Assembly (NCBI GenBank): GCA_964016885.1 | Contig: OZ024741.1 | Location: forward strand, 213,528,001-213,592,000 | Reading direction: 5' to 3' | Length of the DNA: 64,000 bases | DNA from: Eledone cirrhosa | Taxonomy: Eukaryota | Shown: piece by piece, positions 16,490 through 52,974 of the stretch | How the letters are laid out: each line of letters starts with the position of its first letter | Numbering within the stretch: position 1 is the first letter of the stretch | Position numbers and translations under genes: made by a program | The notes under the pieces: model-generated | What the model was told of the DNA's origin: nothing | Seen by the model: only the letters and a program-made list of their open reading frames with translations | Databases searched by the model: none

Positions 16490-17808
16490 GTGCCTGCGTA
16501 TATGCGTATATTTATTGAGTACTTATTTATTTGTATGTGTATATATTTGTTTGTATGTGTGTATATGTATGTGTATATATATATATATATATATATATAT
16601 ATATATATATATATATATATATATATATATATATATATGTTTGTGTGTATATGTGTTTTATGTGTGTATATTTATGTATGTATGTATATGTATATATGTA
16701 TATATATGTGTATATATATATGTATATATATATATGTGTATATATGTGTATGTATGTGTATGTATGTATGTATGTTTGTATGTGTATGTGTTTGTGTATA
16801 TATATATATGTATATATATGTATACATATGTGTATATATATATATATATATATATATATATATATGTATATATATATATATGTATATATATATATATATA
16901 TATATATATATATGTGTGTGTATATATATATATATATATATATATATATGTGTGTGTGTGTGTATATGTGTATGTGTGTGTGTGTGTGTATATATATATA
17001 TATATATATATATATATGTGTGTGTATATATATATATATATATATATATATATATATATATATATATATATATATATATATGTATATATATGTGTGTATA
17101 TATGCGTTATATGTCTGTATGTGTGTGTATATTTACGTATATGTCTGTGTATGTATGTGTATATTTGTATATGTATGGATATATATATATATATATATAT
17201 ATATATATATATATATATGTATATATATATTTATACATATGCATGTGTATGTGTGTGTGTATATATATGTGTACGTGTGTGTGTGTATATACGTGTTTGT
17301 ATATGTATGTATATGTATATATATATATATATATATGTACGTGTATGTGTATGTGTATATATATGTATGTGTATATATGTGTGTATATGTGTATATATAT
17401 GTGTGTATATATATATATATATATATATATGTATATGTATATGTATGTGTATGTTTGTATGTATGTTTGTATGTATATATATATATATATATATATATGT
17501 GTGTGTGTGTGTGTATGTATATGTGTGTATATTTTTATATATTTTTATATATATATATATATATTTATGTATATGTATATATATATATGTGTAGGTGTAT
17601 ATATATATATATATATGTGTAGGTGTATATATATATATATATATGTGTGTGTATGTATTTGTGTATATATGTATGTATGTGTATGTGTGTGTGTATATGT
17701 GTATGTATATGTGTGTGTGTGTGTATATATATATGTATATGTATATATATATGTATATATATATGTATATATGTATATGTATATATATATATATATATAT
17801 ATATATAT
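16490..17808. repeat. (TA)n/(TG)n compound microsatellite
   Basis: Direct. Confidence 0.97.
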
Positions 17809-20607
17809 AGGGTGAAAGTGAAAAATTTCAAAGCCATCCGTGCTGATCGCGCTGGCAGAAGAAAGGGCGGAACTGCCATTTATGTCCATAATTCTTTCTC
17901 AACAGAGGCTATGAACATATTCACTAATGGATACTGTGAGGCAGTCACTGTATTCAGTCAAACCAACAACCTATTAGTAGTTGGGCTCTATAGGCCACCC
18001 CAAACGCCTGTACCATGCTTCAAGGAATGCCTCAACAGCATAAAGTGTTTCATCCAAGAGTGTCACCCTCACAACATCTTAATGATGGGGGACTTCAACC
18101 TCCCCGGAGTTGACTGGTCCACAAACACCCTGCCACCAGGTTCTTCTGCCTCAACCTCTGACAGGGAAGCTGTGGAATCGCTTCTTGACTTCATGGATGA
18201 TTTCTTCCTATCCCAACTAGTGCTCGAACCAACGAGGTGCCACAAAAACGTCCTAGACTTAATTTTCAGCAATCACACTGACAATATCCACAATATTGCA
18301 GTGGAGAAAACTCTACTCTCTGATCATGACATGGTTCTCTGTGATCTGAGATTCCACCGTCCAATATACAAACCTAATGTCATTTCTCCTGTCCATCCGT
18401 TTGACGCTATGGATTTCCACAATGCAAACTGGGAAGCGATCAGTCATGATCTTGCACATGTCGACTGGTCCTTCACGCACACTCATACACCCACTAACAT
18501 CAAAAAGTCCTGGCAGACATTTGTGGACACTGTTACAAACATATGTGCTAAACACACCCCATTAAGAACTATAAACAAATCTAAGAGCAGAATCCCTAGA
18601 AATAGAAAAACACTCATCAGAAAAATTAAGAGAACGAACAAAAAAATCAACAAGCTGAAATACTGTCAGCAGCAACACATCAACTTGACTGCCATTTCAT
18701 CACTAGAGATTAAAAAACATAACCTCCAAAACAACATAATGTCCCTCATCAACAATCAGAGAAGAGCTGAAGAGGCCTGGGCCATTGAGAAGATCAAACT
18801 CAATCCCAAAGTGTTCTTTTCATTTGCAAAAAAACACAAAATCACTGGCTCTACTGTTGGCCCTCTAATTGATGAAAATGGCACTCTTCAAGACAATGCT
18901 AAAACCATGGGTGAGATACTGCAGAAACAATACTGCTCTGTTTTCAGCAATCCTGATATGGCCGATCTGGGCTGTATCGGCGATGTTACTCCCCATTACA
19001 CCTTATCGGACATAACGTTTGGCGCCCCTGATGTCTTGGCGGCAATAAAGGAAATCAAGCATAATTCAGCAGTAGGTCCCGATAGGTTCCCTGCTTGTGT
19101 CTTGAAGGCGTGTCAACACCAACTTGCTTCTCCTCTTGCCAATCTGTGGCGGAACTCACTGGATGCTGGATATGTGCCAGAAAACCTTCTATCCCAGTCT
19201 GTTGTCCCAGTTTTCAAAAAGGGAAACAAATCCCTTGCCGTGAATTACCGTCCAATCTCACTCACCTCTCATATCATTAAGGTATTTGAGCGAGTGGTGA
19301 GATCGCGAATGACCCACTTCCTTGAGAGTAACAATATGCTGAACTCCAACCAGCATGGATTCCGTAATGGAAGGGATTGCCTGACGCAACTACTGCATCA
19401 CTTTGATGACATTTTGAGAGCCTTGGGAGAGGGTTCCAACACTGATGTTATCTACCTTGATTTCAGCAAGGCCTTTGACAGGGTTGATCATAACATTCTA
19501 CTGAGAAAGCTGTCCAATATTGGTGTCACTGGAAAGCTGCTGCAGTGGATCAAGAGCTTCCTGTCAAACAGAACCCAACATGTTGTAGTTGAGGGAGTCA
19601 AATCAAGCCCAGCCAAAGTCAGTAGTGGAGTCCCACAAGGCACTGTGTTGGGCCCACTTCTCTTCATCATCTATATTAATGACATCACTGACATCATCAA
19701 ACACAGCAACATTAAAATTTTCGCTGATGATTCCAAGCTCCAAAAGGTCATCAATGGCGTGGATGACCGGATAAGCCTTCAGTCAGACCTACTGGCTGTT
19801 ACCCAATGGGCAGAAAAGAACAACATGCTACTGAACGAAGACAAATTCGAACTGATCCACTTTGGAAAAGAGGATGCTCTGAAACTCCCGTACTCCCTTC
19901 CCTCCGGGGAAACTCTCGTGGCATCTAACAACATCAGAGACTTGGGAGTAACCGTGGACAGCAACATAAGCTGGACCACGCATATAAGCAGCAAAGTTGA
20001 CATGGCCCGCAGAATGTGTTCCTGGATCCTCAGAACCTTCCAGTCGAGAGATTCCCGCACCATTATCCTTCTCTTCTCTACTTTCGCCCGACCACACCTT
20101 GAATACTGTTGTCCACTGTGGTCTCCCCACACGAAACAAAGTATCATGAAACTTGAAGCTCCTCAAAGGGCAATCACGAAAAAGATAGATGGCATGTCAG
20201 ACCTTGACTACTGGGGTCGATTGGAAAACCTGAAACTTTACTCACTCCAACGTCGCCGTGAGCGTTATATTATCTGCATGATGTGGAAAATGTTCCATCA
20301 TCACTGCCCAAATGATGTTGGCATCGCCTTCAAGATACACCCAAGGCTTGGGCCCCGTGCTATCCGTCCCATTCAAAAATCTAAATCGCAACTCATAACA
20401 ACAATACGGCACAATTATTTCACCTCAATCGGCCCTGCTCTCTTCAACATCACACCAGGACACGTCAAAACAGAAACTGACCACACAAAATTCAAGAAGT
20501 CTTTGGACAAATTCCTCCAAGTAATCCCGGACAAACCACCCACACCCGGATATGTCTCCGCAAACAGTAATTCTCTTCTCGAATGGGCCATGGTGCCCAA
20601 ATCCTGA
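17809..20607 (+). CDS. LINE ORF2 (partial APE endonuclease plus reverse transcriptase), ~932 uninterrupted codons
   Basis: APE motifs GGTAIYV, GLYRPP, MGDFN, LDLIF, SDH. RT motifs [42 protein letters not shown]-terminal [18 protein letters not shown]. The first 62 aa of the track ORF are microsatellite. Confidence 0.95.
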
Positions 20608-20693
20608 ATTGAAAGACTTCGCCAGGTGGTGCTATTAAGTTAGACATGGCCTGGGCCAATACTGGCCAAAACATTTCAAAGTTATTCAAAGTT
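17809..20693 (+). mobile_element. 5'-truncated CR1-group LINE inserted in (TA)n
   Basis: APE-RT ORF2 plus a short 3' UTR ending TTCAAAGTTATTCAAAGTTA, flanked on both sides by pure (TA)n. Confidence 0.93.
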
Positions 20694-20717
20694 ATATATA
20701 TATATATATATATATAT

Positions 20718-52050: not shown

Positions 52051-52059
52051 ATTGACAAA

Positions 52060-52712
52060 TTATAGTATTTCGAGTGTGGGAGAATGGAACATAAAAAATC
52101 ACACTGCAAAACAAAACCTAGAAAAAGGTTCAACAGGAAAAATTATGTAAAAGGTTTATCAGCAAAAAAAAAAAAAGAAATTAACGCGACTCAAATGAAA
52201 TTTGTGTATGTAAAAATTAACAACGTGAATGTGAAATTGCAGATATGGGTAGCGCCAATACTGTAATCAATGAAGACACATGGAAAGAAACCGAGAAACA
52301 TGTTACCTTAGAAGAAATAAAACTAAAAATCGGAAGTTTATATTACTAAAATGGAAAGATTACTTAGAGCAAAAATAATTAAAATGTTTGCAGAACACGA
52401 CCCAGATTCGAACTCATACTCAATGTGTGACAATGTACTGATGTATGCACAAAGTTTAATAATACTGGTCACACTACAAAATCAAATAATAAAAGAATTT
52501 CACGTTGGTCATCCGGGAATATCGAGAATGAAAGCTCTTATGAGAAGTTATGTATAATAGACCAAAATCGACCAAGAGATTTAAATGTTGGCAAAATCCT
52601 GCATAGATTGTGATCTGACAACAATGTCACCTACCACAAAATTTCAACCTTGACCACAGACGGATATTCCATGATCCAGACTGCATATAGCTTTTGCAAG
52701 TTCACGGAGAAG
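52060..52712 (+). pseudogene. Ty3/Gypsy pol relic (aspartic protease remnant plus integrase HHCC zinc-binding region)
   Basis: KFVYVKINNVNVKLQ../TVINEDTWK, then IIKEFHVGHPGISRMKALMRSYV**TKIDQEI*MLAKSCIDC..P*SRLHIAFA, with stops. Confidence 0.82.
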
Positions 52713-52974
52713 TGGGATGAAATTGAAAATATATATATATATATATATATATATATATATATATATATATATATATATATATATATATATATCCACGCTC
52801 CAGAGGAAAAGGAATCTTAAAACTAAAGGAAATGTCTAAATAATAGCTGAAGTGAACTATCAGTTAGTGTTTATAGAGTTACTCGATGCTAGTTCGAAAT
52901 TACACCTGATGAATACTTTCGTTTTACTCTGTTTCGTACAGATATAAAAAACAGGGGTTACAGCATTATATCAA

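Follow-up and report, generated by a model that had tools for sequence, protein, structure and literature searches.

A (TA)n-rich region, or sink, at positions 16490-52790 was analysed within a 64 kb stretch of Eledone cirrhosa contig OZ024741.1 (the whole stretch is referred to here as the window). The region is probably best explained as a nest of mostly 5'-truncated 3' ends of Penelope-like elements (PLEs), together with a family lacking an open reading frame (ORF), family G, with a shared hairpin positioning the reverse transcriptase (RT). Nine families (A, B, D, E, F, H1, H2, H3 and I) can be assigned with high confidence to the Hydra clade of PLEs and one, C, to a Neptune-like type, the clade assignment resting on motifs and homologues rather than on an RT tree with reference Hydra sequences. 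The hairpin is a covarying motif of roughly 25 nt that lies at a fixed distance from the mapped ends of the insertions, in the intact young families A, F and I and in G, and it is apparently an undescribed cis-acting element.

The searches covered the 3.0 Gb genome (1796 contigs). For each family the best 40 copies were scored, a depth at which minor fixed-length subfamilies could escape; copies of E were taken from loci retrieved for other families. The family letters (A to J, with H1-H3) are our own, as those of an earlier reading of the window (the first-pass annotation) were undefined. Read from copies that continue past the (TA)n junction, the hairpin consists of RCUC, a stem of 2-6 bp with a loop of 2-160 nt, then a bulge of two bases, the first of them U, and GAGY (RCUC-stem-UN-GAGY). 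It lies downstream of the hammerhead ribozyme, mostly a few nucleotides beyond the 3' ends of the copies, and is present in all ten Hydra-type families of the region, including G, and outside the region also in family J; it is absent from C. The (TA)n junctions leave the reference sequence 3-7 nt 5' of RCUC in 127 of 140 cases (the background frequency of the motif is 6-8 × 10⁻⁵ per nt), and TA-like microhomology of 1-6 nt is found at the ends. Two hairpins each were found in A, F, H2 and I, and one was seen in B, D, E, G, H1, J and H3. The families with two hairpins have two fixed ends, which in I lie 5 and 3 nt before the respective hairpins. A second motif past the long ends was predicted from A and F, and was found in both other families for which a full-length copy was retrieved (H2 and I).

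The motif is also found in a metagenome set of Hydra-type elements comprising 78 loci, 52 sequence clusters, 45 upstream windows, 189 ORF windows and 56 hammerhead matches. Here it reads GCUC..UY-GAGCACU and is often present in two copies, located about -105 and -45 relative to the ORF, in the 5' untranslated region (UTR). It is present in 29 of the 45 upstream windows, compared with one of 45 on the reverse strand and seven of the 189 ORF windows, and it follows 37 of the 56 hammerhead matches, always at 31-59 nt. The strand bias is marked (sense in 45 of 78 loci; one antisense instance). In the 30 of 52 clusters that carry the hairpin, pairing at the inner positions, which were not selected for it, is seen in 29, 25 and 21 of 30; shuffling gave means of 22.2, 12.9 and 11.8, and the observed counts were reached by 0, 0 and 2 of 5000 shuffles with one instance per cluster. 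An RNAalifold analysis of 41 instances gave changes on both sides, that is compensatory changes, at four of seven pairs. This set consisted of the 45 listed instances minus six judged to be probable chance matches or in ORFs plus two window instances; the strand and cluster-pairing counts use all instances. Among 21 anchored comparisons of repeat-copy pairs, ten diverge 2-11 nt before the motif, three straight into (TA)n; the remainder comprise two contig ends at 2-3 nt, two point differences and seven that run through.

Published sequences are in line with these results (statements on cited papers refer, here and throughout, to the portions of each source that were covered). By eye, the hairpin can be seen in three of the six Hydra consensus sequences that were published and in variant form in a fourth; the Hydra-1_Ajap consensus starts 2 nt before it (PMC8557442). 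In the part of the published set covered, four 9-mers from the hairpin have only three other matches, all coding-looking and in other clades. Rfam contained no family for the hairpin and gave one weak, unrelated match in 12 metagenome loci. No description of the hairpin was found in the full-text literature covered, a scope outside which most subscription papers and preprint supplements fall.

The hairpin is reasonably likely to be an RT-positioning signal for internal priming. A transcript containing two pseudo-long terminal repeats (pLTRs) with the ORF between them, or a tandem transcript, would be produced, and the GIY-YIG endonuclease would nick (TA)n, the sequence in which the insertions lie. 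The RT would bind the hairpin 3' of the hammerhead and complementary DNA (cDNA) synthesis would start 3-7 nt 5' of it, where the ends are observed; the nicked (TA)n strand would pair over a few bases upstream of the hairpin with the help of the TA-like microhomology. Priming at the first hairpin would give the short end and priming at the second the long end, whose tail holds the first hairpin; this two-end geometry is seen in A, F, H2 and I. Copying would run back through the hammerhead and the UTR and break off at random points, which would leave ragged 5' ends and produce head-to-head pairs, and each insertion would retain its TA flanks, so that sinks would grow. G would have kept the hammerhead and the first hairpin, lost the ORF and come to be copied in trans. 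Since the hairpin is absent from short-end insertions, it would have to act on the template before or during priming. Hairpin-positioned priming would explain both the PLE tail and the mobilization of G. A precedent is provided by the Poseidon PLE, the RT of which starts in vitro at two internal RNA sites, the tail being the stretch between them (PMC11167929). A stronger form of the proposal, in which the hairpin would be a clade-wide RNA address that is both necessary and sufficient, with two copies making both ends and the tail and one copy letting G spread, is only slightly favoured.

Several points weigh against this reading. Thirteen of the 140 junctions fall outside 3-7 nt, eight of them at 12 nt in B, and the first A junction continues into non-TA sequence. 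The families are related by descent, so the junction counts are not independent events, and the junction set holds no H3 junctions; the pairing shuffles likewise take no account of relatedness. A second hairpin was not seen in B, D, E, H1 and J, in which no inspected copy reads through that far. In the metagenome set, the strict motif is missing from 16 of 45 upstream windows and 22 of 52 clusters, many of which are truncated contigs. C manages without a hairpin, and G has no sequence similarity to any tested family. Elsewhere, hammerhead mutants of Poseidon left insertion unaffected (PMC11167929), eight of nine Xenopus retrozymes failed to cleave (10.64898/2026.07.22.740005) and the minimal PLE hammerheads cleave weakly; cleavage may be dispensable for insertion.

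The islands of the region, with one just outside it, are as follows (hammerhead cores are given by position).
15568-15846, outside the region: family J, head-to-head 3' ends; core 15703 (-), hairpin 15782-15808 (+)
16260-17809 (+): family B (Hydra-type), 5' part; endonuclease-coding end, then start of a TG/TA microsatellite-like 3' UTR
17810-20692 (+): 5'-truncated, non-PLE long interspersed nuclear element (LINE) with APE endonuclease and RT, in the UTR of B; RVT_1, Exo_endo_phos_2
20721-20801 (-): family I, tail-only insertion; hairpin 20765-20790
20819-21927 (+): family B, 3' part; core 21867, predicted cut after 21905
21940-23626 (+): family C (Neptune/Nematis-like PLE); frameshifted RT-endonuclease end, 3' UTR, core 23373, no hairpin
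23810-23892 (-): family I, second tail-only insertion; hairpin 23856-23881
24015-24732: family C, head-to-head pair; cores 24271 (-) and 24444 (+)
24779-26266 (-): family D (Hydra), 3' UTR and internal microsatellite; core 24981, predicted cut after 24848
26996-27174 (-): family E, 3' end; core 27101
29929-30264 (-): family D, 3' end; core 30133, predicted cut after 29999
32254-32713: family F (Hydra), head-to-head pair; cores 32353 (-) and 32525 (+), hairpin 32632-32653 (+)
33389-38250 (-): family A, full-length Hydra-clade PLE; 830-aa frame 37500-35008 between two 538 bp pLTRs, cores 37790 and 33467, two hairpins at about 37666-37699 and 37514-37530
38251-38784 (+): family H1 (Hydra), 3' end; core 38676
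39190-39497 (+): family G, 5'-truncated piece of a 700-706 nt unit; core 39200, GUC cut predicted after 39318
40119-40513 (+): family B, 3' end; core 40454
42553-42927: family F, diverged head-to-head pair; core 42824 (+), half core and hairpin 42625-42645 (-)
45850-46051: family I, head-to-head 3' ends with half cores; hairpin 45980-46005 (+)
46096-47732 (-): family H2 (Hydra); endonuclease end 47685-47266, 3' UTR, core 46191
47994-49678 (-): family I (Hydra); endonuclease end, 3' UTR, core 48096, GUC cut predicted after 48011
50355-51900 (-): family H3 (Hydra-type, decayed); endonuclease remnant, core 50599 with mutated triplet, hairpin 50429-50490

In the Hydra-type coding families the RT and an endonuclease of the GIY-YIG type at the C-terminus are encoded in a single ORF; for E, H1 and H3 the endonuclease end alone was seen. 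RWR and DKT motifs are present in A, F and D, and RWR in the 5' reads of H2 and I. The CxCX5C linker, with CxxC and CxH around conserved E and N residues and no CCHH, is found in A, F, D and I; the H2 piece, which also carries Hydra motifs, begins inside the linker. The hammerhead in the pLTR and the (TA)n insertion are both present. Pfam named no domain in six PLE pieces; the window PLE protein has four named homologues among the best 60 of 120 listed, with Argonauta hians (two) and Solemya velum among the sources. In C the C-terminal endonuclease is accompanied by a CX2-5CxxC linker and CCHH residues, and the C-terminal 420 aa on which the call is based suggest a Neptune/Nematis-like element. 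The first-pass annotation had related the elements to Naiad PLEs; this identity was rejected, as Naiads have an N-terminal endonuclease and no canonical hammerhead, whereas here the endonuclease is C-terminal with Hydra motifs and canonical hammerheads are present. Its broader description of the region as an assemblage of PLE families that target (TA)n and carry pLTR hammerheads, many of these with a palindromic stem III, holds.

Copies elsewhere in the genome connect the islands to complete elements. The best 40 of 5507 candidates for A share 93-100% identity, and all 40 scored copies of F (891 candidates) are identical; the pLTR spacing is 4323 bp in A and 3969 bp in F. The F island is the pLTR of an element with a 737-aa protein (locus L147) and the D island (685 candidates) that of an element with a 724-aa open frame (L148), and full-length parents were found for I (774 aa; L352) and H2 (L349). 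In H1, H2 and I an endonuclease end lies about 1.0-1.25 kb upstream; in H1 it was found within 2.6 kb in 14 of 37 copies, mostly at 1.15-1.26 kb. B spans 16260-21927 and is split by the LINE. Its two parts lie 1.9-2.7 kb apart on one strand at three places, and the Hydra RT and endonuclease lie upstream of its first part at 19 of 19 other loci; a 1.4 kb upstream region that seemed common to B copies was an artefact of the measure. The endonuclease end is upstream of E in two of 17 copies and of H3 in the window copy, so that the basis is thin for these two families (two loci and one locus). In B, C, D, F, H1 and H2 the upstream limits of the copies are ragged.

G is very likely a non-autonomous, retrozyme-type family. 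The best 40 of 3029 candidates, with 98-100% identity, are scattered over seven large contigs. Head-to-tail units of 700 and 706 nt with one hammerhead each occur at two of 25 loci (L357 and L358), neither of which gave a tblastn match; the longest stop-free frame is 55 aa and the GC content is 34%. Upstream lengths range from 2 to 660 nt; six of 25 copies cross the unit boundary, and all six wrap into the preceding unit. An endonuclease lies upstream in two of 39 copies and is attributable to other insertions. Most copies do not reach the length of a unit, stop at a single site into (TA)n and have ragged 5' ends; the window copy at 39190-39497 is itself such a 5'-truncated piece. No parent of G was found; G has no blastn similarity to the ten PLE UTR or pLTR stretches compared, but it shares the hairpin and the junction rule with the Hydra-type families.

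The region holds 18 complete hammerhead cores from 11 families, each located by structure, with the J core at 15703 as an additional one; this agrees with the approximately 17 cores and 11 families first proposed, and every position then listed holds a hammerhead-type motif. A strict structural scan of 24.9 kb of repeat-stripped sequence gave five matches without mismatches and eight with at most one, compared with at most one in each of 20 dinucleotide shuffles, so that the real count exceeds chance. No hammerhead model was present among the 150 Rfam matches listed of 164 in the window, which are chiefly microsatellite-driven microRNA models. The stems are retained across families of unrelated sequence, and canonical CUGANGA, GAAA and UH elements are found in 14 cores. 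The A core reads CCGAAGA in 18 of 19 copies, the I core is a CTGAGAA variant and the G core is CTGATGA in 29 of 30 copies. Most families have a stem I of 4-10 pairs, with only 2 bp adjoining the core in C, and a mismatch at the fourth position of stem II is common to D, E, F, H1, H2, H3 and J. The H3 and J copies are mutated, the former in the cleavage triplet.

Stem III is repeatedly self-complementary, as first noted, though not in every family: helix III is perfectly so in A, D, E, F, H1 and H2, and in C through G-U pairs, whereas B, G and I have real stem III helices; self-complementarity is mutated in the window copies of H3 and J. Dimeric cutting is predicted for the hammerheads with a palindromic stem III, and monomeric cutting for those of B, G and I; the core variants of A and I may be weak. 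Two earlier assignments required correction. The ACCGGT taken for stem III at 50561 is an arm of stem II in the copy with the mutated triplet, and the D cores placed at 24838 and 29989 are in fact CTGAAGA at 24981 and 30133 (-), with a 10 bp stem I. Stem II is very long in D (115-116 nt; 24848-24981 and 29999-30133), G (95 nt; 39200-39318) and I (56 nt; 48011-48096). These long-stem-II hammerheads sit in young families and are overlooked by standard descriptors.

The first-pass annotation had also suggested that several ORF-less cassettes of 170-500 bp, each equipped with a promoter, a ribozyme and a poly(A) signal of its own, may move as fixed non-autonomous units. G is indeed non-autonomous, very short insertions are common, and B, with CCAAT at -90 and TATAAA at -36 relative to its core, carries the full cassette with ATTAAA as its poly(A) signal. 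B is the only family of 11 to do so: a sense CCAAT within 220 nt occurs in five of 11 families (chance 0.18) and TATAWAW within 70 nt, excluding the TA tract flanking G, in three (chance 0.17), giving the promoter claim little sequence support. Moreover, coding sequence lies upstream in ten of the 11 families (A, B, C, D, E, F, H1, H2, H3 and I), in the window or in other copies that extend into a coding PLE, and comparisons of many copies, where available, show ragged 5' ends. The short cassettes are thus irregular truncations, and B and E were dropped as non-autonomous candidates. We regard fixed cassettes of this kind as very improbable. That G is itself a passive satellite spread by unequal crossover or duplication is more improbable still. 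Its tandem units exist, and a preprint permits local tandem amplification of pLTRs (10.64898/2026.07.22.740005), but the scored copies are scattered over seven large contigs at 98-100% identity and are mostly of sub-unit length, with a single end site into (TA)n and ragged 5' ends.

The poly(A) signal is the part of the cassette that stands. AATAAA occurs within 10 nt past the predicted cut in seven of 12 families including J (chance about 0.02 per 20 nt) and is a real signal on this sequence evidence. The fixed 3' ends might then reflect polyadenylation, with the hairpin serving in processing or translation; the short ends of A, E, F, H1 and H2 lie about 33-44 nt beyond AATAAA, and the metagenome hairpins are in the 5' UTR shortly before the ORF. 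Yet ends are also fixed in D, G and I, which have no such signal, B ends 2 nt past ATTAAA, second ends follow second hairpins, and no poly(A) runs are present at the junctions displayed. In the metagenome set A(A/T)TAAA is found at 19 of the 56 hammerhead matches, compared with the 37 followed by the hairpin. We consider this explanation improbable. The hairpin could instead act at the DNA level, as an endonuclease site or as a cDNA hairpin in second-strand synthesis or resolution, which we regard as unlikely. The tail of D. virilis Penelope was reported to be needed for endonuclease recognition (earlier work cited in PMC11167929), and the mostly Watson-Crick pairs are as compatible with DNA as with RNA. 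A DNA-level role sits poorly with the strand specificity of the motif, its tolerance of G-U pairs and of loop insertions of 63-160 nt, and its loss from short-end insertions. RT positioning by the hairpin in the RNA template remains the preferred reading.

The abundance of hammerheads in the region is ordinary for this genome. Pure (TA)n makes up 27.6% of the region, which divides into 19.0 kb of PLE families, 2.9 kb of LINE, 9.7 kb of unassigned simple repeat and 4.7 kb of other sequence. In 40 arbitrary 10 kb stretches the mean (TA)n share was 0.058, with one of the 40 above the 0.276 of the region. These 400 kb gave 23 matches to the hammerheads of the present families, a count obtained with a partial D query, and 27 generic matches; with 11 generic matches in the 36.3 kb region, the excess is about 4.5-fold. 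An unusual hotspot was rejected because this matches the TA excess, hammerhead density following TA content. Scaling up would give roughly 10⁵ such cores genome-wide.

Part of the sink is element-internal, microsatellite-like UTR of B and D. Degenerate TG/TA microsatellite of 1-2.5 kb lies within the 3' UTRs of these families (16490-17809, 20819-21563 and 25078-26266), so each insertion would add microsatellite and possibly new target sites. The tail-only insertions of I (81 bp tail) look as if copying began at the second site and stopped near the first. The LINE has a 931-aa open APE-RT frame and terminates in (TA)n. Two related islands without a hammerhead core, 41524-41743 (with a hairpin at 41593-41620 on the minus strand) and 45474-45817, are likely to be tails of a twelfth Hydra-type family. 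No hammerhead was found in further repeat families that terminate in (TA)n, in part arranged as head-to-head pairs (28727-29743; 40558-40793; 43786-44153; 44417-44505 with 44981-45359); these are possibly other TA-targeting elements. The island at 49719-50310 has an internal 170 bp duplication and no match among the loci retrieved, and 52380-52700 is a decayed integrase zinc-finger fragment, with stops, of an LTR retrotransposon that we take to be Gypsy-like. A short, perfect inverted repeat at 15869-15897, preceded by an A-run and followed by a T-run, resembles a bacterial terminator; an assembly gap (about 16056-16255) follows just past it. Long minisatellite arrays flank the sink (3700-11800 and 52900-64000), the right one tandem, strongly skewed and C/A-rich.

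The Hydra-type coding families closely resemble the Hydra-clade PLEs described by Craig et al. (2021; PMC8557442), for which hammerheads, (TA)n targets and an octopus family, Hydra-1_Obim of Octopus bimaculoides, are known. Common features are the C-terminal GIY-YIG endonuclease without CCHH, RWK/RWR, DKT and CxCX5C, the pLTR hammerhead, the (TA)n target, 5' truncation, inverted copies and the tail. The present elements differ in unit length (about 4.0-4.3 kb, compared with 'generally <3 kb', a tendency rather than a diagnostic), in tail length (about 70-150 nt compared with 30-40), in the microsatellite-like UTRs of some families, in their thousands of young copies and in hammerhead variants (the 115 nt stem II, CCGAAGA and CTGAGAA). 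Naiad PLEs share the (TA)n preference and differ in the N-terminal endonuclease and the lack of a canonical hammerhead (PMC8557442). Compared with the minimal PLE hammerheads (Cervera and de la Pena, 2014; PMC4209133), the type I fold and the palindromic helix III of A, D, E, F, H1 and H2 are alike, whereas B, G and I have a stable helix III and D, G and I a very long helix II.

G resembles the animal non-LTR retrozymes (Cervera and de la Pena, 2020, PMC7229834; Li, Clavereau and Pollet, 2026, 10.64898/2026.07.22.740005) in being non-coding, low in GC and head-to-tail, with one type I hammerhead per unit and co-occurring PLEs, and it fits the preprint's definition of an active non-LTR retrozyme, activity apart. 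Its unit of 700-706 nt exceeds the 170-400 nt of the former study and falls inside the 51-972 bp range of the latter. G differs in occurring mostly as dispersed sub-unit truncations in (TA)n and in carrying a candidate cis signal that would name its helper clade. According to the preprint, how animal retrozymes are mobilized is still to be worked out.

The PLE families and G are newly found members of already known kinds, and their pile-up is ordinary. L2-clade LINEs and their short interspersed nuclear element partners (eel UnaL2/UnaSINE1) carry a 3' stem-loop that is common to the autonomous and non-autonomous members and is thought to recruit RT. That stem-loop is at the RNA 3' end and is copied into every insertion, whereas the present hairpin, which can be found in two copies, lies 3' of a putative internal priming site and does not enter short-end insertions. 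A further parallel is Poseidon of Anolis carolinensis (Frangieh et al., 2024; PMC11167929), which likewise has two internal RT starts, a tail between them and an AT-rich target. In that system internal initiation was shown and the binding motif only bracketed. In the present families every end is placed 3-7 nt 5' of a separate hairpin copy within the 5' UTR, and TA-like microhomology is present. The hairpin is visible in the consensus sequences of PMC8557442 and is not mentioned in the text of that paper as covered. It makes the choice and start site of PLE RNA, and retrozyme mobilization, testable with a few mutants, and it provides a rule, based on sequence, by which orphan retrozymes can be matched to Hydra-clade helpers.

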